Assembly: GCA_964291405.2 (NCBI GenBank)
Contig: OZ219926.1
Coordinates: forward strand, 2,272,001 to 2,336,000
From: Thermodesulfobacteriota bacterium
GTDB lineage: Bacteria > Desulfobacterota > Binatia > Bin18
Length of the DNA: 64,000 bases
Direction of reading: 5' to 3'
In this document: positions 43,825-58,686 of the stretch, one piece after another
How positions within the stretch are numbered: the stretch's first letter is position 1
How the letters are laid out: each line of letters starts with the position of its first letter
Notes under the pieces: model-generated
Database searches by the model: none
What the model saw: the letters and a program-made list of their open reading frames with translations, nothing else
What the model was told of the DNA's origin: nothing
Translations under genes and position numbers: made by a program

Positions 43825-44718
43825 ATGAGCGAGCCCATTATCCTAACAACAAGTGTAGAGGGACTTCCTCCACCCCGCCGCGGAAAGGTCCGTGATATTT
43901 ACGAAACCGACGACTATCTGTTGATCGTTGCAACCGACCGGGTCTCGGCCTTTGATGTCGTGCTGCACGAAGGCATACCGGGCAAGGGGCGGATCCTGAC
44001 CCAGGTGTCCCGCTTTTGGTTTGACCGCCTGGCCGACATTGTGCCGCACCATCTCATTTCGGTTGACGTGGATACGTTTCCGGCTGTGTTTCAGTCCACC
44101 CGTGACAGCCTGGCCGGTCGCTCCATGTTGGTCAAAAAAGCGGAACCGCTACCGGTTGAGTGTATCGTTCGGGGCTATCTGGCCGGGTCCGGCTGGCAGG
44201 AATATCGGGCGAGTGGAACCGTGTGCAGCATTCCGCTGCCCTCAGGATTAGAGGAGAGCGCCCGGTTGCCCGAGCCCATCTTTACCCCCTCAACCAAGGC
44301 CCCGCAGGGCGAACACGACGAGAATATCGCCTTTGCGGAAGTCGAACGCCTCATTGGCACGGACCTGGCAGCCCAGGTGCGGGACCTCAGCCTGGCCCTG
44401 TACAAGAACGCCCACGCCTATGCGGAAACCAAAGGCTTTTTCCTGGCGGACACCAAATTCGAGTTTGGCCAGTGCGACGGTCAGCTCATTCTTATTGATG
44501 AAGCCTTTACGCCGGACTCGTCGCGCTTTTGGCGGAGCGAAATCTATCAGCCCGGTAAATCCCAGGACAGCTATGACAAGCAGATTATTCGGAATTATCT
44601 GATTTCCCTGGGTTGGGACCGCAGACCGCCCGCTCCGCATCTGCCGCAGAAGATTATCGATCAGGCGGCCTCCCGCTACCAGGAAATCTACGAAAACCTG
44701 ACTGCTACAGACGGCTAA
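43825..44718 (+). CDS. purC: SAICAR synthetase
   Basis: RGKVRDIY, TDRVSAFD, ECIVRGY, FTPSTKA, DTKFEFG, TPDSSRFW. Confidence 0.96.
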   Translation: MSEPIILTTSVEGLPPPRRGKVRDIYETDDYLLIVATDRVSAFDVVLHEGIPGKGRILTQVSRFWFDRLADIVPHHLISVDVDTFPAVFQSTRDSLAGRSMLVKKAEPLPVECIVRGYLAGSGWQEYRASGTVCSIPLPSGLEESARLPEPIFTPSTKAPQGEHDENIAFAEVERLIGTDLAAQVRDLSLALYKNAHAYAETKGFFLADTKFEFGQCDGQLILIDEAFTPDSSRFWRSEIYQPGKSQDSYDKQIIRNYLISLGWDRRPPAPHLPQKIIDQAASRYQEIYENLTATDG

Positions 44719-44734
44719 GCCTACGAGCATAAAC

Positions 44735-45691
44735 ATGGCATCCGGTATCGGCCTCTGGATCGGTTTCACCCTGATTGTTCTCGGCCTGCTGTTCCTGGAC
44801 CTGGGAGTCTTCCATCGTGAAGCGCGTGAAGTGTCGCGCAAAGAAGCCGGTATATGGAGCACGGTCTGGATCGGCCTCGCCCTGGTCTTTAACGCCTGGA
44901 TTTATTATACCAGCGGCTCGGAGCCGGCCCTGGAATTTCTCGCCGGCTATTTGATCGAAAAATCGCTCAGCGTGGACAATATTTTTGTCTTCTTGCTGAT
45001 TTTCTCCTATTTTTCCGTTCCCTTGGCCTACCAACATCGCATTCTGTTCTGGGGGATTCTGGGCGCACTCATCATGCGCGGGATTTTCATTGCCCTCGGA
45101 GCGACGCTGCTGCACTATTTTCACTGGATCATCTATCTCTTCGGCGCTTTCCTGATCTTCACCGGGGTCAAGATTGCCGTTTCGGATGAGACCGAATCCG
45201 ACCCGGAGGATAATCCGGCCATTCGACTCTTACGGCGCATTCTGCCGGTCACGGACAAATACGAGGGTCAACACTTCTTCGTCCGGCATCAGGGGAAGCT
45301 CTTTGCCACCCCTCTCCTGGTCGTCCTCGTTTCCGTAGAAAGCACGGACTTGGTCTTTGCGATCGACTCGATTCCTGCCATTTTTGCCGTCACCGACGAC
45401 CCCTTCATCGTCTACACCTCAAACGTCTTTGCCATTCTGGGCCTGCGCGCCCTCTACTTCCTGATTGCCGGCGTGCTCGATCTGTTTGTCTATCTACGCA
45501 TCGGCCTGGGCGTGGTGCTGGGCTTTGTTGGCGTCAAAATGCTCCTGGTTGACGTGTATCCCATCCCGATTGGCCTCTCTCTGGGCGTGATCGCGCTTGT
45601 CCTGACCGCGACGATCGTTGCTTCGCTGCTCTTTCCGCCCTCCGAGCCGGAGAGCCCTCAGTCCAAGGAAGATATTTCTGAGGCGGTCTAG
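44735..45691 (+). CDS. TerC/Alx family membrane protein
   Basis: EKSLSVDNIFVF, DLVFAIDSIPA, FAILGLRALYF. Confidence 0.93.
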   Translation: MASGIGLWIGFTLIVLGLLFLDLGVFHREAREVSRKEAGIWSTVWIGLALVFNAWIYYTSGSEPALEFLAGYLIEKSLSVDNIFVFLLIFSYFSVPLAYQHRILFWGILGALIMRGIFIALGATLLHYFHWIIYLFGAFLIFTGVKIAVSDETESDPEDNPAIRLLRRILPVTDKYEGQHFFVRHQGKLFATPLLVVLVSVESTDLVFAIDSIPAIFAVTDDPFIVYTSNVFAILGLRALYFLIAGVLDLFVYLRIGLGVVLGFVGVKMLLVDVYPIPIGLSLGVIALVLTATIVASLLFPPSEPESPQSKEDISEAV

Positions 45692-45699
45692 GTTGCCCC

Positions 45700-46947
45700 A
45701 TGTCCCCCCCACAAAAAGGCCGACGCGCGCTTGAAGGCGTCCGCATTCTTGATTTCACCTGGGTGGTCGCCGGTCCGGTCGCGGTCCGTATCCTGGCCGA
45801 TCAGGGTGCCGAGATCATTAAAATCGAGCGGCGCGATACGTTGGACTTGGGGACACGGCGCGGCGGCTTTTCCGGCAATTTGCACCGGGGTAAGGAGAGT
45901 ACGGTTATCAATATGGCCGACCCGCGTGGGATTGAGATCGCCCAAAAACTCGCAGCTATATCGGATGTCGTGATCGACAATTTCAGCGCACGGGTCATGC
46001 GTAACTGGGGGCTCGACTATGAGAGCCTCAAAAAAATCAAGCCCGATATTATTGCGGTCTCCATGTCCGGCTTTGGGCATACCGGGCCGCACAAGGATTA
46101 TGTCAGTTATGGGCCGACGCTCCAGGCTTTGTCCGGCTATACGCTCCAGATGCGTCATCCCGGTCACGAGCCGGCTGGCTGGGGCTATTCGTATGCGGAC
46201 ATGACCGGTGGCTATAGCGGCGCGCTGGCCGTATTGATGGCCCTGTGGCATCGCAAACAAACCGGTCAGGGGCAATTCGTTGACCTGGCACAATTTGAGG
46301 CTATTTCCAGTCTGGTTGGGCCAGGCTTGCTCGACATCCTGAATAATCAGACGCCCAGTGAGCCGGTCGGCAATCGTTCCCAGGAAGCGGCGGCAGCGCC
46401 GCACGGGGTGTATCGCTGCAAAGGTGACGACCGCTGGTGCGCGATTGCCGTCTTCACCGAAGCAGAGTGGCAGAGTCTGTGCCATGTCTTGGGGCAACCG
46501 GCCTGGACGCGCGAGACACGCTTTGCCACTCTTGCAGACCGTCTCCAACATCAAAACGCTTTGGACGCCCAGATTGAAGCCTGGACGCAGCAGCATACGG
46601 CAGAAGAAGTCATGACCCGCCTGCAAGAAGCCGGTGTCGCCGCTGGCGTGGTTGCCAACGGGGAAGATTTGGACCACGACCCGCAACTGCGGGCGCGAGG
46701 ATATTGGGCGCAGTTGCCGGCTCAGGAAGGCGGAAAGACAGAAGATGTCATACTCGACGGGCCGCCGTTCAAACTCTCGAAGACGCCAGGCTACGTGGCC
46801 ACCCCAGGCCCGCTGCTGGGCGAGCATACGGATAGCGTGCTTCGCCGCCTGCTCAACTATTCCGATCAGCAGATCGCTCAACTCAAAGCAGAGCGCGTCA
46901 TCGCCTCGCATGCAGAGATTCATGCAGAGCGGACAGCACAGGACTAA
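45700..46947 (+). CDS. CaiB/BaiF family III CoA-transferase
   Basis: RILDFTWVVAGP, DNFS, SYADMTGG (catalytic Asp), PLLGEHT. Confidence 0.92.
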   Translation: MSPPQKGRRALEGVRILDFTWVVAGPVAVRILADQGAEIIKIERRDTLDLGTRRGGFSGNLHRGKESTVINMADPRGIEIAQKLAAISDVVIDNFSARVMRNWGLDYESLKKIKPDIIAVSMSGFGHTGPHKDYVSYGPTLQALSGYTLQMRHPGHEPAGWGYSYADMTGGYSGALAVLMALWHRKQTGQGQFVDLAQFEAISSLVGPGLLDILNNQTPSEPVGNRSQEAAAAPHGVYRCKGDDRWCAIAVFTEAEWQSLCHVLGQPAWTRETRFATLADRLQHQNALDAQIEAWTQQHTAEEVMTRLQEAGVAAGVVANGEDLDHDPQLRARGYWAQLPAQEGGKTEDVILDGPPFKLSKTPGYVATPGPLLGEHTDSVLRRLLNYSDQQIAQLKAERVIASHAEIHAERTAQD

Positions 46948-46958
46948 GGAGGCACCAC

Positions 46959-47741
46959 ATGCCGTTTGCCTCAGTCAATGGGATTGAACTGTATTATGAA
47001 ACCCACGGAACGGGTCCAGCCCTGGTGTTAGCGCACGGTGGAGGGGGGAGTCACCTCAGTTGGTGGCAGCAAGTTCCGGCACTCTCCAAAACGTATCAAG
47101 TGGTAACCTTTGACCATCGGAGCTTCGGCTATTCCCGTGATGTAGCCACCGGCCCAGGCCCACGAGCGTTTGTTGAGGATTTGACCGGCTTACTTGATCA
47201 TCTGGGGATTCAGAGGGCGGCACTTGTGGGGCAGTCCATGGGCGGCTGGACGGTGTGCGGCTTTGCCGCTGCCTGTCCCGAGCGTACCAACGCGCTTACT
47301 TTGTGCGATACCACCGCCGGTATTGAAACGCCGGAGATCGATCAAACGCGCGCCAGCCTGCGTGAACGCGCACAGGGCAATTTGGCCCAGCTTCTCACCA
47401 GCGCATACGCCATGTCTTTTCCTAAGCGTGAACCAGCGCTGTCTTTTCTCTACCAACAGATCTCAGCCCTGAATCAGCACATCTCGCCCAATCTCGTTCC
47501 AACACTGATGAGCCTGTACACCAACGTAGCGCCCATTGTTGAGCACAATATTCCCACCTTACTTGTGGTTGGAGAAGAAGACGTACTGGCTCCACCGCCC
47601 GCCATGCAAAGCATTACGACCCGTATTCCGCAGGCACGTTTTGTAACCGTCCCCAAGGCTGGCCATTCCGCGTACTTTGAACAACCGGCGGTTTTTAACC
47701 GCTTGGTGGATGAGTTCGTACGAGAAAACCAGCCGTTGTGA
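46959..47741 (+). CDS. Alpha/beta fold hydrolase
   Basis: HGGGG, DHRSFG, GQSMGG nucleophile elbow, GEED, AGHS. Confidence 0.92.
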   Translation: MPFASVNGIELYYETHGTGPALVLAHGGGGSHLSWWQQVPALSKTYQVVTFDHRSFGYSRDVATGPGPRAFVEDLTGLLDHLGIQRAALVGQSMGGWTVCGFAAACPERTNALTLCDTTAGIETPEIDQTRASLRERAQGNLAQLLTSAYAMSFPKREPALSFLYQQISALNQHISPNLVPTLMSLYTNVAPIVEHNIPTLLVVGEEDVLAPPPAMQSITTRIPQARFVTVPKAGHSAYFEQPAVFNRLVDEFVRENQPL

Positions 47742-47794
47742 CCGGCAGGGGCGGAAGTCGTCCACGTTGATTTATGGACCAAAGCGGACGGATT

Positions 47795-48829
47795 TCAGGT
47801 CATCGCCGGCAACTCCCAATGACGCTGCTGTACGGCCCGGACGTTGGGGAGCAGACCCTGGCGTTCATACGCTGGGAGCGGATGGTCGAGCCGGGCACCG
47901 TCCATTTCGTCCAGAACGTGGATCACCGAAGTTTCCAGTCCTTCCAGATCGTAGCCGCCTTCGAGAATGGCGGCGCAACGGCCCTGGGCCTGATCCCGCG
48001 CCACGCGCAGGAGAATCCGTGCCAGGGCAGTAAAGCCCTCTGCCGTGACGGTCAGACCACCGAGTGGGTCACGGGCGTGGGCGTCAAAGCCGGCGGAGAT
48101 CAACACAAACTCGGGCTGAAACTGCCGACAAATAGGATCGATCACCTCTTCAAATAGGGGCACAATGGCGGCATCGCCCCAGCCGGCGCTGAGCGGCAGG
48201 TTGACGGTATAGCCCTCGCCGCTGCCTTGGCCGGCTTCTTCGGCGGCTCCTGTGCCGGGATAGTATGGATATTGATGGGTCGAGACGTACAGCACGCCAG
48301 GGTCATCGTAGAAACTGTGCTGGGTGCCGTTGCCATGGTGCAGGTCCCAATCCATCACCAGAATCCGGCTCAACCCGAACCGTTCCCGCAGATATTGCGC
48401 CCCAACCGCAACGCTGTTGAAGAGGCAAAAGCCCATGGCCCGGTTACGTTCGGCATGATGGCCGGGCGGTCGTACCAAGGCAAAACCGTTGTCCACCTCG
48501 CCCTCCATGACCGCATCCAGAATGGTCAGCAGACCGCCGGTGGCGAGCAGGGCTGTCTCATACGACTGCGCGGACACCCGCGTATCCGCGTCAAAGGCCG
48601 CAGCTTCGAGACCGGCAGAGGCAGCGACTTGGCCAATCAGGCTGGTATCGTGGACCAAAGCGATCTCCTCATGCGTCGCCCGTCTGGGCTCAAACCGTTT
48701 CAACCCGTCACGTTCGTAGGACGCGAAGCGGCTGAGTAGGGTACCGATCCGATCCGCCCGTTCCGGATGACCCGGACCTGGGTTGTGATCCTGATAGCGT
48801 GCGTCCAGCACGATTCCTGTCTGTAACAT
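47795..48829 (-). CDS. Histone deacetylase family protein
   Basis: HPER, RPPGHHA, DWDLHHGNGTQ, SAGFDAH, LEGGY. Confidence 0.94.
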   Translation of the reverse strand: MLQTGIVLDARYQDHNPGPGHPERADRIGTLLSRFASYERDGLKRFEPRRATHEEIALVHDTSLIGQVAASAGLEAAAFDADTRVSAQSYETALLATGGLLTILDAVMEGEVDNGFALVRPPGHHAERNRAMGFCLFNSVAVGAQYLRERFGLSRILVMDWDLHHGNGTQHSFYDDPGVLYVSTHQYPYYPGTGAAEEAGQGSGEGYTVNLPLSAGWGDAAIVPLFEEVIDPICRQFQPEFVLISAGFDAHARDPLGGLTVTAEGFTALARILLRVARDQAQGRCAAILEGGYDLEGLETSVIHVLDEMDGARLDHPLPAYERQGLLPNVRAVQQRHWELPAMT

Positions 48830-48910
48830 TGATCGCTCCTTACCGGGGCGGGGGTGTCCCCTCCTACCGTGTTCTGGCCATAACTTGCGCCAGTTTTTCG
48901 ATTATACTAC

Positions 48911-48964
48911 GAAGAGTAAACGTGTCCTCCACTAGACATACGATGCTGGACACGTTTACTCTTT
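48911..48964. mobile_element. 54-bp palindromic element, copy 4 (intergenic, upstream of tatA/B)
   Basis: Perfect 16-bp arms AAGAGTAAACGTGTCC / GGACACGTTTACTCTT (48912-48927, 48948-48963) with a 20-nt spacer. Confidence 0.85.
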
Positions 48965-48983
48965 TGTAACCCGAGAGGCAAAT

Positions 48984-49286
48984 ATGTTCGGAATCGGGAT
49001 GCCGGAATTGGTGGTGATTTTGGTCGTGGCGCTGATCGTCCTCGGGCCAAAGCGCCTGCCCGAAGCGGCCCGCGGTTTGGGTAAAGCCTTTGCCGAATTG
49101 CGCCGGGCAACAAGCGGGATTACCGAAGAGCTCGATAATGCCCAGATCATGCTGGACGAAGAAGTTCGTGCCGCCGAACGCAACGCACGGACCAGCTCTT
49201 CAGCCATGCCGTCCTCTGCCTCTTCCGCCTCACCCCAGTCTTTGGAAACACCAGAAAAGAAAGAGAGCACCGGAGGGGACAACTAG
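48984..49286 (+). CDS. Twin-arginine translocase TatA/TatB subunit
   Basis: MFGIGMPELVVILVVALIVLGPKRLP. Directly upstream of tatC. Confidence 0.92.
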   Translation: MFGIGMPELVVILVVALIVLGPKRLPEAARGLGKAFAELRRATSGITEELDNAQIMLDEEVRAAERNARTSSSAMPSSASSASPQSLETPEKKESTGGDN

Positions 49287-49289
49287 GAC

Positions 49290-50051
49290 ATGGTCTATGA
49301 CGACCGGTCCATGCCGCTCACCGGACATCTGGATGAGTTGCGCAGCCGCCTCATTCGGTCTTTGCTTGCCATCTTCATCGTCTTTCTGCCAGCCTATTTC
49401 TTTGCCAATGTGCTGTTTGCTTTTCTCGCTCAGCCCCTGCATCACATTACGACCGATCCCCATTCGCTGATTGGCACCAGTCCGACCGAAGCCTTCTTTA
49501 CAAAACTCAAGGTCGCTTTTATTGCCGCGCTCTTTGGTGCCAGTCCGGCTATTTTCTACCAACTCTGGCAGTTCGTTGCTCCAGGCTTATACCCACAGGA
49601 ACGCCGCTACGTATGGCCGTTTGTCATATTCTGTTCATTTTTTTTCGTGCTGGGGGCCGGCTTTTGTTATACCGTCGTCCTGCCGATTGCGTATGCGTTT
49701 TTTCTGGGAGAGTTCCACAGCATCGGGGTACAGGCAACCTTAAAGATCAGCGAGTATCTGACATTTACGGCCAGAACGCTACTCGCCTTTGGGGTCACGT
49801 TTGAACTGCCCGTCTTCGCCTTTTTCTTTGCCCGTGTGGGGCTTATCACCCACCATACCCTCATTGGCGCCTTCCGTTATGCCGCGGTTGGCGTATTCAT
49901 CCTGGCCGCCATCCTCACCCCGCCCGACGCCATCTCCCAAATGCTCCTCGCCGGCCCGCTGCTCCTGCTGTATGTGCTCAGCATCGGGGTAGCCTATATG
50001 TTTGGGAAAGAAGCCAGTGAGGGGACGGAGCCGGAGGAAACTGACGAGTAA
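49290..50051 (+). CDS. tatC: Twin-arginine translocase TatC
   Basis: HLDELRSRL, FVAPGLY, FELP, LTPPD. Confidence 0.95.
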   Translation: MVYDDRSMPLTGHLDELRSRLIRSLLAIFIVFLPAYFFANVLFAFLAQPLHHITTDPHSLIGTSPTEAFFTKLKVAFIAALFGASPAIFYQLWQFVAPGLYPQERRYVWPFVIFCSFFFVLGAGFCYTVVLPIAYAFFLGEFHSIGVQATLKISEYLTFTARTLLAFGVTFELPVFAFFFARVGLITHHTLIGAFRYAAVGVFILAAILTPPDAISQMLLAGPLLLLYVLSIGVAYMFGKEASEGTEPEETDE

Positions 50052-50117
50052 CGGCCTTTTTGATAGGCCAGCGTTTCCAAGCGAGCGAAGAGATCTAGTA
50101 CGGCTCTGATTGATACA

Positions 50118-50151
50118 TCCACAATTATATTCTATAGGATATAATTGTGGA
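50118..50151. promoter_or_regulatory. 34-bp palindrome over the TA promoter and start codon (likely antitoxin operator)
   Basis: TCCACAATTATAT-TCTATAGG-ATATAATTGTGGA with perfect 13-bp arms. It contains TATAAT and the GTG start. Confidence 0.7.
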
Positions 50152-50530
50152 CAACAGACTCGATCCCAAACCCCTGCACTTTGTGGGTGACAGTGATAGA
50201 AATTTGCGGGGCTTTCCGAAGGAAGTCCGCGAGGTCATGGGACAAGCACTCTGGGCAGCCCAACTCGGCAAGAAGCATCCGGACGCAAAACCCCTCAAAG
50301 GATTCACCGGAGCCGGTGTCTTAGAGATTGTCTCCGATTATGACACCGATACCTATCGTGGGGTCTACACCGTGAAGCTGGCCGGTGTGGGGTACGTACT
50401 CCATACGTTTCAGAAGAAGTCAAAGCGCGGTATCCAAACTACCAAGCAGGATATTGTACTGATACGACAACGTCTGAGGGCTGCCGAGCAGCATTATCGA
50501 GAGCAGTACGCTCCGGGGAGAAAGCCATGA
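50147..50530 (+). CDS. Type II toxin, RelE/HigB (Gp49-like) family
   Basis: KPLKGF.GAGVLEI, TYRGVY, VLHTFQKKSK. ATGA overlap with the HTH gene. Confidence 0.9.
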   Translation: MDNRLDPKPLHFVGDSDRNLRGFPKEVREVMGQALWAAQLGKKHPDAKPLKGFTGAGVLEIVSDYDTDTYRGVYTVKLAGVGYVLHTFQKKSKRGIQTTKQDIVLIRQRLRAAEQHYREQYAPGRKP

Positions 50531-50868
50531 GTACAGATATCAAAGTAACGCCTTCAAGCGGAAACGTGTTCGCTGACCTCAATCTGCCAAATCCAGAGGA
50601 GCGCTTAGTGAAAGCGACCATCGCCTTGAGCATTGGAGAGCTGATTGAGAAACGGGGCCTCACCCAAGAGGAAGCGGGGACTATTCTTGGGTTGCCACAA
50701 CCGAGCGTCTCGAACCTAGTTCGGGGCAAACTAGGGAAGTTCACAATCGACCGGCTGCTCCGCTACATGCGGAAGCTCGACTACGACGTCACTATCAGCT
50801 TTAAGCCCAAGCCCAAATCCCGCGATCAGGCCACAATACATGTCAAGGGAGCGCCTCTGCCAGCTTAG
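50527..50868 (+). CDS. XRE/HTH antitoxin (HigA-like)
   Basis: SSGNVFADL, LTQEEAGTILGLPQPSVSNL, FTIDRL. Confidence 0.9.
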   Translation: MSTDIKVTPSSGNVFADLNLPNPEERLVKATIALSIGELIEKRGLTQEEAGTILGLPQPSVSNLVRGKLGKFTIDRLLRYMRKLDYDVTISFKPKPKSRDQATIHVKGAPLPA

Positions 50869-50917
50869 TTCACCTCTTGAGATTATTGCCAGTATTCGTT
50901 CGTTTTTCCATATACCT

Positions 50918-51403
50918 TCACACCAACCGCTGCTCGCAATTCTGACGTTGGCTACAGTTTCGGCACTTGGCTGGCGTAGCAGGTGGGGAGAGAGGTTCGT
51001 CGAGCTGTTGACGGTGCGCTCGAATGCGTTCCGCAATACCAATCACCCGTGAACGCAGCCTGCGCGTGTTTTTCACCTTGATCCGCTCACCGTCTCTCAA
51101 AATGATGAAGCCGTAGGGGGGCCGGACGCCGTACTCTTCTTCGACTAATACCAGATACACACCGAGTTGGGCTTGGTAGCTCTCGTTCATCTGTCGTCCG
51201 GACTTCTTTTCTTCTGGAATAAAATATCGACCACGCTGGACAATCCGGTCCGGTTGCCCGCGGAGCATATAACGCTCAGAAGACAGCCGCACATCATCGT
51301 GGCTGACGGTCTTGCCGTAGCCAAAGCCGGCCCGGCGACGACCGATGAGGGCGAAGGCAAAAAGCAGGACGGAGAGGCTGAGCAGCAGCGTCAGGATAAT
51401 CAT
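50918..51403 (-). CDS. Cas4-like PD-(D/E)XK nuclease, C-terminal part, with N-terminal TM helix
   Basis: TM IILTLLLSLSVLLFAFALI, GQPD, EKK, QLGVY, CxxC-x5-C. Its ATG overlaps the upstream TGA (TGATG). Confidence 0.85.
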   Translation of the reverse strand: MIILTLLLSLSVLLFAFALIGRRRAGFGYGKTVSHDDVRLSSERYMLRGQPDRIVQRGRYFIPEEKKSGRQMNESYQAQLGVYLVLVEEEYGVRPPYGFIILRDGERIKVKNTRRLRSRVIGIAERIRAHRQQLDEPLSPPATPAKCRNCSQRQNCEQRLV

Positions 51404-51648
51404 CACGATAGGTAGACACGGAGCAGGATGCAGGCCAAGGCGATACCCGCCACAATGAGAGCGGCTCGCATGAGCCGGGCAGTCAGGCGTTCGACCCGTT
51501 GCCATGCGGCGTGCGTTTCCGTGCCCCGGCGGAGCGCCCACACACTACCCGGCGGGATTTTGAGTCCATGCGTCAGCCGCCAGGCTTCCTCGCAATAGAC
51601 GTAGGTTCCTATTTCACTTGCGGTGACCCACTCGCCGTGTTTGGCCAT
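51403..51648 (-). CDS. Cas4-like N-terminal fragment with C-terminal TM helix
   Basis: VTASEIGTYVYCEEAWRL (first Fe-S Cys), RRGTETH (GxxxH), then TM AALIVAGIALACILL. Confidence 0.8.
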   Translation of the reverse strand: MAKHGEWVTASEIGTYVYCEEAWRLTHGLKIPPGSVWALRRGTETHAAWQRVERLTARLMRAALIVAGIALACILLRVYLS

Positions 51649-51696
51649 AGGCGATCCGGTATGGAGACACGGAGGTGGTGAGACCGATGATCCACC

Positions 51697-51972
51697 TTAC
51701 GCTGAGTCCGTAGTCCCCGGGTGCATTTTCTCCATTAACCAGTCGTCATACGCGGTCGGACGGGGGACTTGGTGCCAGTCCATATGCTGACGCAGGGATT
51801 CGAGCGCGGCCCAAGCGTCATCAAGAAAGTCCGGCACGATCAGGAGCACAATAATGGCCTGGGTATTGTCGATCGTGCGGACAATGCCGAATTCTTCGTA
51901 GGACTCGATGACACATTTGATGAGCGCAATATCGGCCCGCTCAACCCGCAAATAAATATCGACCAGCTCCAT
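51697..51972 (-). CDS. DUF4911-like small protein
   Basis: IYLRVERADIALIKCVIESYEEFGIVRTID pattern. Confidence 0.7.
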   Translation of the reverse strand: MELVDIYLRVERADIALIKCVIESYEEFGIVRTIDNTQAIIVLLIVPDFLDDAWAALESLRQHMDWHQVPRPTAYDDWLMEKMHPGTTDSA

Positions 51973-52086
51973 GTCCGCACCAGTACTGCGTGCACGGGCT
52001 GGAGTCAAGCTTGACGTGACACCGGCGGCCTACTAGAGTCTGACTCTGCTGTGTCGGATCTATCCGGCCGGAAATAAGGAGGGAGT

Positions 52087-53292
52087 ATGCCGGGTGCCTT
52101 ATCAGGTTTTCGGATCATTGAATGTGGCGAGATGGTCTCCGCCGCCTACGCGAGTAAGCTCATGGCCGACATGGGCGCAGAAGTCATTAAGATTGAGTCG
52201 CCGCACGGGGGAGACACAGCCCGTCAGCGCGGTCCATTTCCAGGCGGAGAGCCACACACGGAAAAGAGCGGGCTGTATCTTTTCCTGAACACCAATAAAC
52301 GTGGGATCACGCTCGACCTGGAACAGACCCAGGGCCAGGAGGTCTTTCAGCGTCTTGTCAAAGACGCGGACCTGCTTATCCATAATGTCCATCCCAAGCA
52401 TATGCCGACCGTTGGTTTAGACTACGGTCGCCTGGCGGCCATCAATCCCGGCCTGGTCATGACCTCAATCACGCCTTTTGGTATCAGGGGACCGCATACG
52501 GAGTATGAGGCGTCTGACCTCACCCTGTGGAATGCGGGCGGGCTGTGCTTTCTGAACGGTGGGGGGCCGGGCACCGACCATCTCCCGCCGCTCAAGGCAT
52601 TTGGCCAGCAGTCCGGGTTTACGGCTGGGGTGCACGCCGCGGTTGCGTCGCTCGGCGCACTGTTTGCCGGACTGCGCGGCGGGTTGGGCCAGCACGTCGA
52701 GTTCTCTGTCCAGGAGTGCCTGATGGGCATCTCGGAGTTCGGCACTATGATGGCCTCCTACGCCGGTGTAGCGGTAACGCGGCTGGGGCATAAACCAATC
52801 CAGCCGCTGGATCTGTTGGAATGCAAAGACGGCTGGATCTTCATCTGCTGTGTGGAGGAGCATCACTGGCACTCGTTTGTGGATCTGATGGACAACCCGG
52901 AGTGGGCCGCCGAGCCTCTCTTCGAGGATCGACTGAAGCGGGGCGAGAGTTGGGACGCGCTCAAACTGCTCATCCAGGACTGGGTCAAGGATTTCACGGT
53001 CCAGGACTTGTATCTCAAGGCGCAGGCGCGCCGGATTCCCTTTGCTCCGGTCTCAACCATGGGCTATTTGTTGAACTCCGACCACCTCAACGCCCGCGGC
53101 TTTTTTGTCCAACTCGATCATCCCGAAGCGGGCAGCCTGACCTATCCGGGCGCACCCCATATCTGCTCGGAAACACCGTGGGAACTGCGTCGTCCGGCTC
53201 CGTGTTTGGGACAGCATAACACCGAGGTCTATACCGAACTCGGCATGACCGCCCAGGACCTGGCTACGTTGCAGCGAGCCGGTGCCGTCTAG
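52087..53292 (+). CDS. CaiB/BaiF family III CoA-transferase, first subunit of a tandem pair
   Basis: MADMGAEVIKIE, NTNKRGITLDL, APCLGQHN. AAGGAGG RBS. Confidence 0.92.
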   Translation: MPGALSGFRIIECGEMVSAAYASKLMADMGAEVIKIESPHGGDTARQRGPFPGGEPHTEKSGLYLFLNTNKRGITLDLEQTQGQEVFQRLVKDADLLIHNVHPKHMPTVGLDYGRLAAINPGLVMTSITPFGIRGPHTEYEASDLTLWNAGGLCFLNGGGPGTDHLPPLKAFGQQSGFTAGVHAAVASLGALFAGLRGGLGQHVEFSVQECLMGISEFGTMMASYAGVAVTRLGHKPIQPLDLLECKDGWIFICCVEEHHWHSFVDLMDNPEWAAEPLFEDRLKRGESWDALKLLIQDWVKDFTVQDLYLKAQARRIPFAPVSTMGYLLNSDHLNARGFFVQLDHPEAGSLTYPGAPHICSETPWELRRPAPCLGQHNTEVYTELGMTAQDLATLQRAGAV

Positions 53293-53315
53293 GAAGAAGG
53301 CAAAAGGAGAAGATC

Positions 53316-54530
53316 ATGAGCCGACCACCGTTGGATGGAATCCGTGTTGCTGACTTTTGCTGGGCCTGGGCCGGCCCCTATGGTGCCCTGCAACTGGCCC
53401 ACCTGGGCGCGGACGTCATTCGGATCGAAAGCGCAAAGCGCTTATGTCCGTCGCGCCTTATTCCGCCCTGGCCGGACAACGAATCGGGCGTGAACCGGGC
53501 GGGCTATTTTAACCAGTACAATCAGGGGAAGCGTTCCCTCACCCTGGACCTGAAAGCCCCGGAAGCCATTGATATTGCGAAAACGCTAGTCTCAAAAAGC
53601 GATATCGTCATGAATAATTTTGCCTCTGGGGTGATGGAAAAACTCGGGGTGGGCTACGACGTCCTGCGCCGCATCAAGCCCGACATCATCATGGTCTCTC
53701 TCCCCGGCTATGGAACGAGCGGACCGGAAAAAGACTTTGTGTCCTACGGCCCACCGCAGGTCGCCCAGAGCGGCCTGTCGGCCTTGACCGGCTATGTCGG
53801 CGGGCCGCCCATGATGGCCGGTTTTTCCTACGGCGACCCCAACGGCGGTGTCCATGCCACGTTTGCCGTCATGGCTGCCTTGCTCCACCGTGAAAAAACC
53901 GGCCAGGGCCAGTACATCGATCTCTCCCAATGGGAGGCGGCGATCATGCTATTGCCCGAAGCCCTCATGGACTACAGCATGAACGGCACCCAGCCCGAAC
54001 GGATGGGCAATCGCGACCCTCATATGGCACCCCACGGCGTCTTTCGCTCCAAAGGTGACGACCGATGGGTAAGTCTGTCGGTTCGAGACGAGGCAGAATG
54101 GCAACGCTTGTGTGAGGTCATGGGCCAACCCGAGCTCAGCTCGGACGCGCGTTTCACCACCCTTGCCGCACGGAAGGAAAATGAGGCGGCCCTGGAAGAA
54201 ATCGTCACGGCCTGGACTCAGGAGCGCACGGCGGACGAGGCCACCCAGGCGCTGCAGAACGCCGGCATTCCCGCCTATCCGGCGCTTGACGCGATTGACA
54301 TGGTCAACAACCCGCACGTTGGCGCGCGGGATTATTTTGTGGAACTGGAACACCCGGAGGTGGGCACCCGCCGGCATATGGGCATACCCTGGACCATGTC
54401 CCGCACACCGTGTGAGATACGGCGTCCGGCTCCTTGCCTGGGCCAGGATACGGATACAGTCCTGACCGATATAGTCGGCCTGAGTCAGGACGAGATCGCT
54501 GCGCTTCGAGAAAAGGATATCCTGACCTAG
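53316..54530 (+). CDS. CaiB/BaiF family III CoA-transferase, second subunit of a tandem pair
   Basis: DFCWAWAGP, NQGKRS, SYGDPNGG (catalytic Asp). Confidence 0.92.
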   Translation: MSRPPLDGIRVADFCWAWAGPYGALQLAHLGADVIRIESAKRLCPSRLIPPWPDNESGVNRAGYFNQYNQGKRSLTLDLKAPEAIDIAKTLVSKSDIVMNNFASGVMEKLGVGYDVLRRIKPDIIMVSLPGYGTSGPEKDFVSYGPPQVAQSGLSALTGYVGGPPMMAGFSYGDPNGGVHATFAVMAALLHREKTGQGQYIDLSQWEAAIMLLPEALMDYSMNGTQPERMGNRDPHMAPHGVFRSKGDDRWVSLSVRDEAEWQRLCEVMGQPELSSDARFTTLAARKENEAALEEIVTAWTQERTADEATQALQNAGIPAYPALDAIDMVNNPHVGARDYFVELEHPEVGTRRHMGIPWTMSRTPCEIRRPAPCLGQDTDTVLTDIVGLSQDEIAALREKDILT

Positions 54531-54568
54531 ATAGGGAGGAGGGTGGACCGGCTGCGCAAAGCGTCATC

Positions 54569-54623
54569 AAAGAGTAAACGTGTCCAGCAGTTTGATATCA
54601 ATTGGAGGATACGTTTACTCTTT
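54569..54623. mobile_element. 55-bp palindromic element, copy 5 (intergenic, between convergent genes)
   Basis: AAAGAGTAAACGTGTCC-21 nt-GGATACGTTTACTCTTT. Confidence 0.85.
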
Positions 54624-54639
54624 CAGTCCGTCCCCTGTT

Positions 54640-55749
54640 TTATAATCCGTACAAACGCCGCGCATTCTCATAGGTAATCTTGCGCTTGACCTCGGCGGGA
54701 ATGCCGGCAAAATTCTGCTCTATCACCGCCCGCGAGCGCGGCCAGGTTGAGGCGCGATGGGGGAAATCCGAGGCCCACATCAGATTGTCCGCGCCGCTCA
54801 GGTCATAGGTCCTCACCCCGGCCCGGTCGTCTTGAAAGGTGGCATAGATCTGCCGTTTGAAATACTCGCTAGGCAGAAGGGCATTCGGAGTTGGGTCCAC
54901 ATACTTGAGCGTTTCGGACGAGATGTCCAGACGACTCAAATAATGAGCGATCCAGCCAATATCGTTTTCTGCGGAAACCAGCTTCAGCCTGGGAAAACGT
55001 TCGCACACGCCGTTGTAAATCAGGTCGGTCAACGAGTTTTGGACCTCGTGAATAATAGACATATTTGAGGCGACCCGTCCCTTCTTGAGCCGGATGTTTT
55101 GCTTACCAGTAAGAATATGCAGGCTCACCGGCAGGTCTAAATCCTGAGCGGCCGCCCAGAACGTATCAAAGGAGGTATCGCTGTAGGGCACCTCCCGGGG
55201 AGAGGTCGCGTTAATCATGATCCCGCGCAATCCCTTATTGGCAATGCGCTGTAACTCGCCTACGGCCTGCTCGACATCCTGCATGGCAATCAGCCCCAAA
55301 CCAATCAGGCGCTGGGGGGCGTGACTGACAAATTCGGCTATCCAGTCGTTATAGGCCCGGAAGCACGCCCACTGAAGGTTGGCGTCTTTGAGGTGGAAGA
55401 GGAACATGCCGAGGGTCGTGTACAGCACTTCTCCCTCGACCCCGTCGATATCCTGATCCTTGAGCCGTTCGACCGGGTCCCAACCGCTCGGACGTGCCTG
55501 CTCGTAGCCGACGTTCTGATTGGTCGCCAAGTCTTTGGGGTCCTTGCCCGCGGCAAACCCGCCACCCACGGGAAAGGGGACGAGGCCTTCCGCAACAAAA
55601 AAGCTGCCCTGCTTGTCTTGATAGTCCTTGATGACGCGCGGCGCCCGATCTCGAAAGCCCCGGTCTACGCGTTGCACCCAGAGATCCGCAGGCTCTATGG
55701 TGTGCGAGTCTGCCGAAAAAATCGTGCTTGGTGTTGCATCCTGTGCCAT
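54640..55749 (-). CDS. Amidohydrolase_2 family protein
   Basis: SADSH, RAYNDW, SLHIL, RFPRLK, WASDFPH, ENARRLYGL. Confidence 0.88.
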   Translation of the reverse strand: MAQDATPSTIFSADSHTIEPADLWVQRVDRGFRDRAPRVIKDYQDKQGSFFVAEGLVPFPVGGGFAAGKDPKDLATNQNVGYEQARPSGWDPVERLKDQDIDGVEGEVLYTTLGMFLFHLKDANLQWACFRAYNDWIAEFVSHAPQRLIGLGLIAMQDVEQAVGELQRIANKGLRGIMINATSPREVPYSDTSFDTFWAAAQDLDLPVSLHILTGKQNIRLKKGRVASNMSIIHEVQNSLTDLIYNGVCERFPRLKLVSAENDIGWIAHYLSRLDISSETLKYVDPTPNALLPSEYFKRQIYATFQDDRAGVRTYDLSGADNLMWASDFPHRASTWPRSRAVIEQNFAGIPAEVKRKITYENARRLYGL

Positions 55750-55918
55750 ACTGTCTCCCTTCCTTTGTAGCCGCAATTATCCTGCGGTTGGCTGGGAAAT
55801 GTCAATCCGACCGAACTGTTCTAGGGGCATTCCGCTCGCCCGGTGGCATGGGGTGTATAGACACACGGGTGAACGATAGAATCTGCCCCTGAATCTATTG
55901 AGGGAGTGGGAGATTCCC

Positions 55919-56896
55919 ATGCGTTATATCATCTACGGGGCGGGCGGCATCGGCGGGGCCATTGGGGCACGGCTGTTTCAGCATATCCATGAAGTTATTC
56001 TGATCTGCCGGGGTGAGCACTTACAGGCCATCCAATCCAAAGGCTTGATATTGAAGACCCCCAGGGAGACGCTCCAACTCACAATCCGTGCGGTCGGCCA
56101 TCCCGAAGAGATCGCGTTTAGCCCGGATGATGTGGTGTTGCTGACGATGAAGTCCCAGGACACGGAAATGGCGCTGCGCGACCTTGAGCGCGCAGGAGGC
56201 CGGGACCTTGCCGTCGTCTGCGGTCAGAACGGAGTGGACAATGAACGCCTGGCCATCCGTCGATTTGCACATGTCTACGGTATGGTTGTCTGGATGCCAG
56301 CCACCTATCTGGAGCCGGGGCTGGTGCTGAATCATGCCGAGCCCGTTGGTGGTATTCTGGATGCCGGGCGCTACCCCAACGGGGTTGATCCGCTCATCAC
56401 CCAGGTGACGCAAGATTTGACCAATTGTGGCTTTAGTGCCACGCCTGACCGCAATATTATGCGCTGGAAATACACCAAGCTGCTGAGTAATGTACGCAAC
56501 GCCTTTCAGGCGGCGTGCGGATTTGAGGCGCGCTCGCGGAAAATTATTCGAGCGCTCCGCGCCGAAGCCCTGGCCTGCTACCAGGCCGCGGGTATTGAGT
56601 TTGTGCCCGAGGATGAATTACAAGCGCGGGTACGATCCCAGATTAAGCTCGCCGATATTGAGGGCCACCCCCGGACCGGCGGTTCGTCGTGGCAGAGCCT
56701 GATACGTGGCTTGCCCACGATCGAGACTGACTTTTTGAACGGCGAGATTGTCATGCTAGGCAGACTCCACGGTATTCCCACTCCCTGTAACGCCCTGCTT
56801 CAACACGTTGTCAATGATATGGCACGAACCGGCCAGAAGCCGGGCAGCATGACCGTTGCAGACCTGGAACGCCAGCTTGATGAGATCGGCAGCTAG
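55919..56896 (+). CDS. Ketopantoate reductase (ApbA/PanE) family protein
   Basis: IYGAGGIG, MKSQD, QNGV, KYTKL, SSWQSL, ETDFLNGEIV. Confidence 0.88.
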   Translation: MRYIIYGAGGIGGAIGARLFQHIHEVILICRGEHLQAIQSKGLILKTPRETLQLTIRAVGHPEEIAFSPDDVVLLTMKSQDTEMALRDLERAGGRDLAVVCGQNGVDNERLAIRRFAHVYGMVVWMPATYLEPGLVLNHAEPVGGILDAGRYPNGVDPLITQVTQDLTNCGFSATPDRNIMRWKYTKLLSNVRNAFQAACGFEARSRKIIRALRAEALACYQAAGIEFVPEDELQARVRSQIKLADIEGHPRTGGSSWQSLIRGLPTIETDFLNGEIVMLGRLHGIPTPCNALLQHVVNDMARTGQKPGSMTVADLERQLDEIGS

Positions 56897-56949
56897 GCTC
56901 TCGCGTCGGAGACGTTCTGTCTTCCGCACAGATCGGGTATAGTAGCGCC

Positions 56950-58686
56950 ATGCCGTTTTTATTTGAGTCCAGCCTGCCCGCGTGGATGACGTTTACCGCC
57001 GGTGAGGTTCCCATCGTCCTGGTCGCTCCGCACGGCGGTCGCCGCCCGGCTGACGCCCCGATTATCGATAGTATCAAGGTCAACGATCTGTATACGGCCG
57101 AACTCACTCACGACTTAGCCACGCAAACCCGGAGCTATGCACTGATCAACCACACCCACGACCGCAACGAGTTGGACTTGAACCGTGTGAGCCAAGTCAA
57201 ACAGGAGGCACCGTGGTTTCTCACTGCCCTAGTCGAACTCCTGTCAGCGCTGACAGCGCAGCATGACTCGGTGCGCGTCTTTTTTATTCATGGTTGGAAC
57301 GTGGTCCAGCCCGTGTGCGATGTAGGGATTGGACTCCGCCAACGCGCGAACAAACTGATGCAGGCGGGCAAGGGGGAGCCGACGCTGGATGTGTCGTTCT
57401 TTTCTGATGTCGTACTCCCCTTTTGTGAAGCTGCCCAGGAACAGCAGATCGATGTGGCGATTGGACGGCGCTATGCCGCGGCAGCCAAAAATAATTTTAT
57501 GCAGGTCTTCAGCGCACGTTTTCTGCACGACGATTCTCCGCAGATACGAACGCTGGCCGAGCTGTCCGAACAGGGGAAAATTAACGCCGCTCAGTTGGAA
57601 CTTGGTGTGGGGCTGCGTTGGCCCGGACCAGAGCGAGATCGCTTTGTCCGCGTCTTTTGCCATACCTTGGGCAATTCTCTACAGAATGGCGCCGTGCCTG
57701 ATCGGAAGGGCGACCGCGACTTTTCTGCGTGTTCTTTTCTTAAGGCTTTGCCGACAGAGGATACAACGCCGTACGATTCTTTACTGCCTGAGACCTGGGA
57801 GCGCGAGCCTGCCCGCTTGGCCTTGCACTTTCACGATCCGATGAGCGGGTTAGGAGTGATGGGTGGCGTAGAATTTGATCCTGGGGCATCTGTCCATTCC
57901 GGACGCCTACTCCTCTCCCTTGGCGGGACGGAGATGGTGCTCTTTACCGGTGAAGACAGGCGCGGACCGGACCGCGGCCACGTGCAGATCGGGCAGTACG
58001 AGTGGCGGCGGCAGCCGAGGGGACTCTCTATCAGCTACCGGGGAACGCTCATGCGCTTTGCCCATCCCCAGGCATTCATTCGGCTCGAAGACGGGTTGGC
58101 CGCTTCCTGGATAGAACCGGCTGAAGTGGACCTGCAGTTATTGTTTCCTGCAGTGAATTCCAGCCGTCCGGCCCTTATTCAGCTGTGTCAACTCCAGGGA
58201 AGCGTGGCTTTTCCGGATCGCGAGTATACAGTCAACGCCTGGGGCTTTGTTGACGTGCTCAGACCTGACGAAACTGACCGCCTCCTGCCGCGTCGTTTGT
58301 TGTCATTGCCCTTTGGGTCTGACTTGGGGATTTTCCTGGCCCGCGCTGAAACTCCTGATGGACCGCATTCTTCCGGCATTGTCTATCAACACGGCAATCC
58401 ACAGCCGCTGAGCCCCGGAGACTGGAAGCTTGAATACGCCTTCGAGCATGGCCGCCCCACCCGTTTCTCGGTCTCCTTCTCGTCCTCTGCCCCGCTGTCG
58501 CTTGAGTGCCAGGGAGAAACCCTGACGGCTATTCCCATTGTGCGCCATACGCATGATGGGCCGGCCCTGGCGGTCACCTTTGGTCTGTCCCGGACCGTGT
58601 GGCAGGGACGGGAGGCGTATGGCATCTATGAATTCTCCGAATATCTGAAGGATGCGTCAGCGCGGGTCGAGTCACCCGGAGCGTGA
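56950..58686 (+). CDS. Hypothetical protein: N-formylglutamate-amidohydrolase-like N-terminus plus beta-rich C-terminal region
   Basis: VLVAPHGG, NDLYT, DLNR, IHG, QLELG (Zn-exopeptidase-like). The C-terminal half is aromatic and beta-rich, ending GIYEF. Confidence 0.6.
   Translation: MPFLFESSLPAWMTFTAGEVPIVLVAPHGGRRPADAPIIDSIKVNDLYTAELTHDLATQTRSYALINHTHDRNELDLNRVSQVKQEAPWFLTALVELLSALTAQHDSVRVFFIHGWNVVQPVCDVGIGLRQRANKLMQAGKGEPTLDVSFFSDVVLPFCEAAQEQQIDVAIGRRYAAAAKNNFMQVFSARFLHDDSPQIRTLAELSEQGKINAAQLELGVGLRWPGPERDRFVRVFCHTLGNSLQNGAVPDRKGDRDFSACSFLKALPTEDTTPYDSLLPETWEREPARLALHFHDPMSGLGVMGGVEFDPGASVHSGRLLLSLGGTEMVLFTGEDRRGPDRGHVQIGQYEWRRQPRGLSISYRGTLMRFAHPQAFIRLEDGLAASWIEPAEVDLQLLFPAVNSSRPALIQLCQLQGSVAFPDREYTVNAWGFVDVLRPDETDRLLPRRLLSLPFGSDLGIFLARAETPDGPHSSGIVYQHGNPQPLSPGDWKLEYAFEHGRPTRFSVSFSSSAPLSLECQGETLTAIPIVRHTHDGPALAVTFGLSRTVWQGREAYGIYEFSEYLKDASARVESPGA

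Follow-up and report, generated by a model that had tools for sequence, protein, structure and literature searches.

A predicted two-subunit, membrane-anchored Cas4-family nuclease encoded apart from CRISPR in a Binatia genome

Nucleases of the Cas4 and AddB type bind a 4Fe-4S cluster with one N-terminal and three C-terminal cysteines, and the AddB/RecB-type nuclease domains with such an Fe-S 'staple' are parts of large soluble helicase-nuclease complexes. Here we analyse two overlapping genes on the minus strand of a 64,000-nucleotide (nt) stretch of a Thermodesulfobacteriota genome of the class Binatia (assembly GCA_964291405.2, contig OZ219926.1, positions 2,272,001 to 2,336,000; the whole stretch is referred to as the window, and positions are counted from its first letter). 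Their products, gene 1 and gene 2, are read as the two pieces of a single Cas4-family nuclease, each piece with its own membrane helix. In the Sulfolobus Cas4 structure 4IC1, the metal ligands are given as His62, Asp99, residue 113 and Lys115 (PMC13621843). Two relatives have been described outside the clustered regularly interspaced short palindromic repeat (CRISPR) systems. The solo-Cas4 of Methanosarcina mazei is reported to be soluble, to consist of one chain that assembles into a large oligomer, and to have four conserved cysteines for which a [4Fe-4S] cluster was proposed (PMC12501428). ACE1 is reported to be an Argonaute-associated Cas4-family enzyme that forms a heterodimer with long-A Argonaute and interferes with invading DNA (PMC12094033). 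A term search in the text of the 2017 survey of the Cas4 family found 'split' and 'truncated' absent and 'membrane' only within an unrelated gene name (PMC5704561). A full-text literature search, to which most subscription journals are external, returned nothing describing a split or membrane-anchored Cas4, in agreement with a first annotation of the locus (the sequence-only reading, made by a model from the letters and their translations), whose author knew of no functional characterisation of this architecture.

Division of a Cas4 chain between two products with predicted membrane anchors

The pair is best regarded as one two-subunit, membrane-anchored Cas4-family nuclease that in this genome probably cuts mobile or incoming DNA at the membrane. 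We are confident of the molecular part of this statement, namely one Cas4-family Fe-S nuclease built from two membrane-anchored chains to which the cluster and active sites are common. In the translation, gene 1 carries A10-S-E-I13, Y16-V-Y18-C19, W23 and G42-T-E-T-H46 ahead of a C-terminal membrane helix, and gene 2 starts with a membrane helix followed by G49-Q-P51-D52, E65-K-K67, Q79-xxx-Y83 and C147-xx-C150-x5-C156; these are the motifs (GxPD, ExK, QxxxY and CxxC-x5-C in gene 2) and helices that the sequence-only reading had named. The best 19-residue hydropathy window scores 2.43 for the gene 1 helix and 2.89 for that of gene 2. The TGATG by which the genes were said to be joined is indeed found at 51405-51401, and this overlap is consistent with translational coupling of gene 1 and gene 2.

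Alignment of 26 sequences for each gene revealed conservation at these motifs. A10, C19 and G42 of gene 1 are invariant, and W23 and H46 are conserved in at least 90%; D52, K67, Q79, C147 and C150 of gene 2 are invariant, and E65, Y83 and C156 reach at least 90%. In gene 2 alignment A1, C147, C150 and C156 are all invariant and the catalytic residues are invariant or nearly so. The four cysteines of Cas4 are found across the two chains, C19 in gene 1 and C147, C150 and C156 in gene 2, where they are predicted to bind a cluster. The RecB-like motifs, the Asp of motif II, the Glu-x-Lys of motif III and Gln-xxx-Tyr, are likewise present, while the place of a single soluble chain of about 160-220 amino acids (aa) is taken by two open reading frames (ORFs) of 81 and 161 aa. 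By its position, H46 of gene 1 would be the counterpart of the metal-ligand His62 of 4IC1, a structure that stood outside the alignments used; in that case both chains would be needed for the cluster as well as for the catalytic metal site. A further motif, E..YGVRP (gene 2 residues 88-95, 51118-51141), lies directly after QxxxY and is invariant across the family; the alignment to 4r5q, the best match among solved Cas4 structures, is gapped at this place, and the motif falls outside the predicted interface with gene 1.

Comparison with family models gave the same division. Gene 2 matches the Pfam family Cas_Cas4 (PF01930) with an expectation value (E) of 3.2e-10 and 40.7 bits, above the cut-off of 22.7, over profile positions 52-158 of 160; the match starts about 50 positions in and the N-terminal part is absent. 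The match to TIGR00372, the cas4 equivalog, covers model positions 56-179 of 180, and the missing N-terminal part is that encoded by gene 1. The PADLOC Cas4 models are matched by gene 2 from about position 51-56 (E 9.4e-19). Other hits of gene 2 were to DruK in PADLOC-DB v2 (E 6.4e-9), through the common nuclease core only, and to the TM0106-family model TIGR03491, with 34.3 bits under a cut-off of 97.45. Gene 1 gave no match to PF01930 in Pfam and none in PADLOC-DB v2, and no family of its own was found for it in Pfam or NCBIfam; among the anti-phage systems described in PADLOC-DB v2 the pair fits none other than Cas4. The PDDEXK_1 model matches both halves, gene 1 weakly at positions 3-53 (E 0.048, 14 bits, cut-off 22).

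Profiles of the two genes were also compared with solved Cas4 structures. The gene 1 profile aligns with residues 56-107 of 4r5q and 6-53 of 8d3l (E 0.05-0.08), and the gene 2 profile with residues 120-214 of 4r5q, 102-201 of 8d3l and 64-196 of 7mi4. As these are consecutive stretches of Cas4 chains, the two products together are colinear with one Cas4, with the helices at the cut. In two archaeal homologues (L032 and L043) the chain is undivided, and membrane helices are inserted at the same point. L032 (2731-3528) has a two-helix hairpin at the split point and is matched by PDDEXK_1 from end to end (positions 3-247 of 247); by analogy, it illustrates the form that the split pair would have had prior to fission. 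L043 (1651-3831) has about 8-10 hydrophobic segments at the split point and two C-terminal TRAM domains.

By the positive-inside rule, the positively charged flank of a membrane helix lies in the cytoplasm. In 36 non-redundant pairs, lysine and arginine number 128 in the 15 positions before the gene 1 helix versus 13 after it, and 15 before the gene 2 helix versus 133 in the 15 positions after it. Therefore both soluble halves are predicted to be cytoplasmic, with external tails of only a few residues, and the arrangement named as fatal to a heterodimer, with the halves on opposite sides of the membrane, runs contrary to these counts. A prediction of the complex, also suggested as a check, was run with our own alignments and a riding 4Fe-4S cluster. 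It scored 0.80, 0.79 and 0.80 versus 0.00 for the best of three controls, passing a mark that 58 of 80 solved complexes attain, as do 2 of 110 mismatched pairs; since single-chain relatives of the fold that the two partners make up have been solved, this pass shows likeness and not binding. Between runs, at least 93% of contacts agree, and the partner's predicted local distance difference test (pLDDT) value is at least 81. In the predicted interface both helices pack along each other and residues 3-53 of gene 1 lie on the gene 2 core, including the cysteine region of gene 2 (residues 146 and 149-156).

The following mechanism is proposed. A Cas4-family nuclease (RecB-like PD-(D/E)XK, Fe-S cluster) would be divided at the turn of a membrane hairpin. 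Subunit A (gene 1), tail-anchored, would supply the N-terminal cluster cysteine and the GxxxH histidine, while subunit B (gene 2), anchored by its N-terminal helix, would supply the Asp, the Glu-x-Lys, the Gln-xxx-Tyr and the other three cysteines. The two helices would pair in the membrane with the soluble parts facing the cytoplasm, and the overlapping stop and start codons would couple the synthesis of A and B. Since the residues are divided between the subunits, neither the cluster site nor the active site would be complete outside the A-B complex, which would be held at the membrane's inner face. A heterodimer with its cluster and active site formed in trans and a two-helix tether was the structural core of the sequence-only reading, and conservation, predicted topology and the modelled complex all lend it support. 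The features of the locus are collected in Table 1.

Table 1. Features of the gene pair in the window
Feature	Position	Strand	Remarks
Gene 1, small subunit, 81 aa (P0001)	51403..51648	minus	Cas4 N-terminal module, then C-terminal membrane helix
Gene 1 residues 1-58, predicted cytoplasmic module	51475..51648	minus	carries C19 (putative fourth cluster cysteine) and GxxxH (G42, H46)
Gene 1 residues ~59-81, predicted tail-anchor membrane helix	51406..51474	minus	extracytoplasmic tail nearly nil
TGATG stop/start overlap	51401..51405	minus	TGA 51405-51403, ATG 51403-51401, one base common
Gene 2, large subunit, 161 aa + stop (P0002)	50918..51403	minus	N-terminal membrane helix, then Cas4 catalytic core
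Gene 2 residues 1-21, predicted signal-anchor helix (N out, C in), RRR after	51341..51403	minus	hydropathy
Gene 2 residues 22-161, PD-(D/E)XK core, predicted cytoplasmic	50921..51340	minus	D52, E65, K67, Q79, Y83, E88/Y91-G-V-R-P95
Three C-terminal putative cluster cysteines, C147-xx-C150-x5-C156	50936..50965	minus	conserved columns

Conservation of the split across phyla

A search with gene 2 found 68 proteins, of which 23 were fetched. Twenty-two of these open with a hydrophobic helix and are without the N-terminal cysteine module; the other, P0065, is a 210-aa fused form with a garbled C-terminus. A gene 2 scan with one genome per species gave 64 loci, spanning Binatia, Planctomycetota, Chloroflexota, Clostridia, a Cyclobacteriaceae metagenome-assembled genome (MAG), an alphaproteobacterial MAG and two archaea. 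A gene 1 homologue lies directly upstream of the gene 2 homologue in 60 of them: in 51 it was found by phmmer with P0001 (E<0.01), and in all nine Clostridia loci with P0071, a divergent local version. The remaining four are the archaeal single chains L032 and L043, a locus with no gene 1 nearby (L035) and a fragment (L028). When 40 further loci were chosen from gene 1 matches, 39 had gene 2 as an ORF of its own immediately downstream, the other was cut by a contig end, and none was fused. The pair and both membrane helices are kept in Binatia, Planctomycetota, Chloroflexota, Bacillota and one Bacteroidota MAG, and a two-gene pattern that recurs across phyla in this way is beyond chance. A search across genomes for a conserved split and conserved helices, as had been recommended, thus found both, and the single-chain homologues that would speak against the architecture are the two archaeal ones, the halves being separate in bacteria. 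At the nine Clostridia loci (L054-L061, L064), the C-terminus of gene 2 has five cysteines and not three.

The junction itself was parsed at 50 loci. A 1-nt overlap is found in 17, a 4-nt overlap in 11 and a gap of 1-6 nt in 9, and a few spacers extend up to 645 nt; some of the negative spacings reflect an uncertain choice of start. The frame relation of gene 1 to gene 2 differs between lineages (0, +1 and +2), so that neither a shared indel nor a fixed recoding is the cause of the split. A programmed frameshift or read-through to a single chain was considered and ruled out by the varying frame and spacing, the in-frame stops and the spacers of 51-645 nt.

A fused bacterial form was sought in two ways. 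When gene 1 was used in a word-index search of longer proteins, no such form came up, which is weak evidence by the tool's own note. A gene 1 profile, built from 26 sequences and scored against 1.84 billion cluster representatives, matched 1774 clusters at E<=1e-3 and 704 at E<=1e-10; the best 150 matches are all 78-133 aa long with no bacterial fused form among them, and since lengths are known for the best 150 of the 1774, the weaker matches may include the N-termini of ordinary Cas4. In the databases, the gene 1 relatives checked are unnamed or a 'hypothetical protein', and homologues of gene 2 are entered as Cas4, 'PD-(D/E)XK nuclease family protein' or 'Dna2/Cas4 domain-containing protein'.

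These data already refute the idea that the split arose from errors of assembly or sequencing, or that the locus is a one-chain gene decaying into a pseudogene, and we attach hardly any probability to it. Broken copies do exist, with L013 and L029 frameshifted and G208 in pieces with stops, and P0065 is fused. Nevertheless, the split stands in 60 of 64 and 39 of 40 further loci of several phyla with varying frame relations, the catalytic and cysteine residues are all conserved, and fused bacterial forms are missing from the best 150 profile matches and from the longer-protein search, with the weight already given to the latter. In the window, contigs of three DNA runs from three studies, one of which may be the source sample, bridge 51395-51410 gap-free, and the indel for which this place was to be checked is present in none of them.

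Expression was approached through public RNA data. Contigs of one RNA-library run lie over 51096-51270 and 51291-51481, the latter spanning the junction, at a depth of 3-4.4; being shallow and possibly carry-over of DNA, they are no proof of transcription or co-transcription. A promoter and terminator scan gave nothing useful for the gene 1-gene 2 operon, and an Rfam scan of 44000-58000 gave no match. Sequence near-identical to window 50700-51900 is found in public sponge and coral metagenome runs of several studies, and the host organism is therefore probably sponge-associated.

Genomic context and probable role

The sequence-only reading held the pair to be independent of CRISPR, and the wider genome data bear this out. 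The window contains no CRISPR-like repeat array, no cas gene was found among the neighbours in the loci scanned, and the cas1/cas2 genes and array that mark a CRISPR-associated Cas4 are missing. Gene 2 is the only Cas_Cas4 match of the genome, and there are Cas1-like matches elsewhere in it; on this ground the pair could be imagined to supply in trans the Cas4 needed in CRISPR adaptation by a cas1-cas2 elsewhere in the genome. This is very improbable, as the Cas1-like matches are weak (47 and 28 bits, best E 3.1e-12) and at least 440 kb away from the pair. Of the 18 congeners with the pair, 3 have a full-length Cas1 match (E<1e-70) and 15 have none; of 9 without the pair, 7 have one. The inverse pattern may be a simple reflection of the species tree and, because congeners are not independent, the counts show only that the pair needs no Cas1. 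The Cas1-like matches are at C3:2764026-2764724 (47 bits) and C3:4806313-4806972 (about 27-28 bits), the second in two pieces within a 299-aa frame, and similar scores are found in many congeners without canonical Cas1. Two small direct-repeat families at 33383-33913 of the window (36 nt x2, 96 nt apart, and 27 nt x3) are not CRISPR-like.

When all neighbouring ORFs of the 64 loci were clustered, no neighbour gene common across phyla was found beyond the pair. With no third gene conserved beside it, the pair appears as a self-contained module. In the Binatia loci the neighbours are syntenic. A DUF4911 gene, 48 nt upstream of the pair, stays in five of five congeners checked without the pair and was ruled out as part of the unit. 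The adjacent toxin-antitoxin module seen in the sequence-only reading was confirmed by Pfam as a Gp49/HigB-like gene (50147-50530) and an HTH_37 gene (50527-50868). The toxin-antitoxin content between the pair and tatC varies or is missing among the Binatia loci, and because of this variability the module too was placed outside the unit. In congeners without the pair, the stretch from tatC to DUF4911 (50052-51696) holds a MazF/MazE-like pair, other helix-turn-helix genes or nothing, and in one of them DUF4911 stands directly against tatC; the pair therefore occupies a small variable islet. The 28 genomes of the genus have 18 intact copies and one broken copy (G208). Across the class, a full-length match was obtained in 9 of 201 genomes sampled, all of this genus, and in none of the other 87 genera sampled.

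In the maximum-likelihood tree built from 43 gene 2 sequences (midpoint root, no outgroup), the Binatia copies lie within a set of 15 rows (100/97), apart from the Chloroflexota and Clostridia sequences. The set comprises 10 Planctomycetota, 3 other Binatia, the window's own sequence and one alphaproteobacterial MAG. Neighbours in this subfamily include an integrase (L020), TraI-like helicases (L016, L018), a Fic toxin (L021) and an SNF2 helicase (L024). An MmeI-like enzyme lies beside the pair both at L023 (Tautonia) and on a Paludisphaera plasmid, the two being 78% identical. A Tundrisphaera plasmid (L025, L030) carries two copies of the pair, with a TIR/SEFIR protein and a short Piwi-domain (Argonaute) protein beside them. 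On two Isosphaeraceae plasmids, one of them typed conjugative, the pair is 1.5-4 kb from MobF relaxase genes, and the subfamily is found on three PLSDB plasmids, all of Planctomycetota, as well as on the Tundrisphaera plasmid. N6 methylases are among the neighbours of the pair on Isosphaeraceae plasmids or elements (L023, L025, L030, L111, L112).

In this genome the pair would be an accessory cassette of the Planctomycetota/Binatia subfamily, placed in the small variable islet and independent of CRISPR-cas. Its likeliest job here would be the cutting of nucleic acid at the membrane, probably the DNA of mobile or incoming elements: such an action is suggested by the patchiness of the subfamily, by its place in a variable islet and by neighbours of plasmid, relaxase and restriction type. 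The same patchiness and neighbours could also go with a plasmid function. In that case the enzyme would serve the plasmid or conjugative element, in processing of transferred single-stranded DNA, entry exclusion or establishment, and not host defence. The MobF relaxase genes, the TraI-like helicase genes upstream of two Tautonia copies and the restriction of all three plasmid matches to Planctomycetota agree with this. We consider it improbable, though, given that no transfer genes lie near the window's copy, that the Chloroflexota and Clostridia copies are chromosomal beside housekeeping genes and that only a handful of plasmids is concerned.

The strongest rival to the cutting of mobile or incoming DNA comes from the sister subfamily. 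The same two-subunit enzyme may have a housekeeping role at the membrane, either in DNA repair and recombination or in RNA maturation and turnover, the Binatia copy having been acquired horizontally; we judge this unlikely for the window's copy, yet well ahead of the plasmid function. In one Chloroflexota order, 133 of the 151 genomes have gene 1 of the sister subfamily (132 of 150 if the unpublished G357 is set aside); a single-protein query found it in 80 of 113 genomes of a Clostridia family, and it is nearly always in single copy. In the sampled genomes of the Chloroflexota order the pair is followed by hisS (13/20) and nadK (14/20); in Clostridia a TRAM-domain m5U RNA methyltransferase follows gene 2 in 20/20 and a YhaM-like gene precedes gene 1 in 16/20. 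In addition, recJ or dnaE is nearby in some loci. TRAM domains usually bind RNA, and the archaeal homologue L043 is fused to two of them. Housekeeping is suggested by a distribution that is near-core and by neighbours linked to RNA and repair, and the conserved order beside hisS and nadK or a YhaM-like nuclease argues against a mobile-DNA role. What speaks against extending this to the window is that its subfamily forms a separate, well-supported branch, is patchy in one genus with no full-length match in the other 87 genera sampled, and resides in a variable islet and on plasmids beside integrase and relaxase genes; besides, within one family or order a conserved arrangement of genes may simply be inherited as synteny and need not mean functional linkage. 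The possible role in cutting incoming DNA suggested by the sequence-only reading fits the contexts of the window's subfamily but not the near-core, housekeeping-linked sister subfamily. The full order in the Clostridia (L054-L061, L064, L071-L090) is YhaM-like OB+HD protein, gene 1, gene 2 and TRAM-domain m5U RNA methyltransferase.

Several further points weigh against a membrane nuclease directed at mobile DNA. The pair had no match among 50,697 phage records, and the defence-type neighbours are guilt by association from about a dozen hand-picked loci. Gene 1 alone falls under Pfam's cut-off and aligns only weakly with solved Cas4 chains (E 0.05-0.08), gene 2 narrowly misses the TIGR00372 cut-off (61.5 versus 65 bits), and the gene 1 helix in the window has a short hydrophobic core of 15 residues between R61 and R77. 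The pass of the complex prediction may come from likeness to solved single-chain Cas4, and the use of our own alignments and a riding ligand departs from the calibration of the tool. What has been observed are the features of the two sequences, how far these are conserved, the colinearity with Cas4 and the distribution of the pair; assembly of the two halves, the Fe-S cluster and its binding, nuclease activity and catalysis, membrane location, substrate and biological role are what we infer from the protein sequences and their contexts.

Relation to known Cas4-family systems

If the molecular reading is correct, the pair would be a natural case of an Fe-S nuclease in which the cluster site and the catalytic centre are divided between two anchored chains. 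A split, anchored design would offer a built-in way to confine or gate a dangerous activity in space. There is also a consequence for annotation, as gene 2 receives a name while its gene 1 partner, which would supply the cluster cysteine and a probable metal-binding histidine, goes unannotated beside it. The large size of the family (704 clusters) and its near-core presence in the Chloroflexota order imply a conserved, unstudied membrane-associated nucleic-acid function. Going further, we put forward, speculatively and as a combined reading that is rather doubtful as a whole, that the pair may be the founding example of stand-alone, obligately heterodimeric, membrane-tethered Fe-S nucleases that patrol the inner face of the membrane. 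Such enzymes might cut DNA entering by phage injection, conjugation or transformation, and in the near-core lineages might instead process the cell's own nucleic acids at the membrane. As part of the same speculation, thousands of 'truncated' Cas4/PD-(D/E)XK genes might be half-enzymes whose partner is an unannotated ORF of ~80 aa.

Among described systems, CRISPR-associated Cas4 (PF01930/TIGR00372; 4ic1, 4r5q, 8d3l, 7mi4) is the closest. It has the same Asp, Glu-x-Lys and Gln-xxx-Tyr core, the same pattern of one N-terminal and three C-terminal cysteines, and a His after the Gly in the N-terminal module as in gene 1, and it is colinear with the pair. The pair differs in that the polypeptide is cut with a membrane helix on each piece, that cas1, cas2 and an array are not alongside, and that it has its own invariant E..YGVRP where 4r5q has a gap. 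AddB/RecB-type domains belong to the same superfamily, and their cluster likewise ties an N-terminal Cys to C-terminal cysteines, whereas the pair has no linked helicase and is, by prediction, membrane-anchored. The solo-Cas4 of M. mazei is similarly encoded away from CRISPR-cas (PMC12501428), but two membrane-anchored chains would stand in the place of its one. ACE1 is also a Cas4-family nuclease that acts in a heterodimer outside CRISPR, and its abstract does not describe it as split or membrane-bound (PMC12094033). The partner of ACE1 is long-A Argonaute, while gene 2 would be partnered by the remaining part of its own nuclease; the Argonaute neighbour of the pair on the Tundrisphaera plasmid is confined to one lineage and lies on the opposite strand. 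The pair would thus add to Cas4 evolution a CRISPR-independent branch whose architecture goes unmentioned in the searched text of the 2017 survey (PMC5704561). By motifs and profile it is a Cas4-family enzyme, and what appears to be new is the conserved two-chain, membrane-anchored build.

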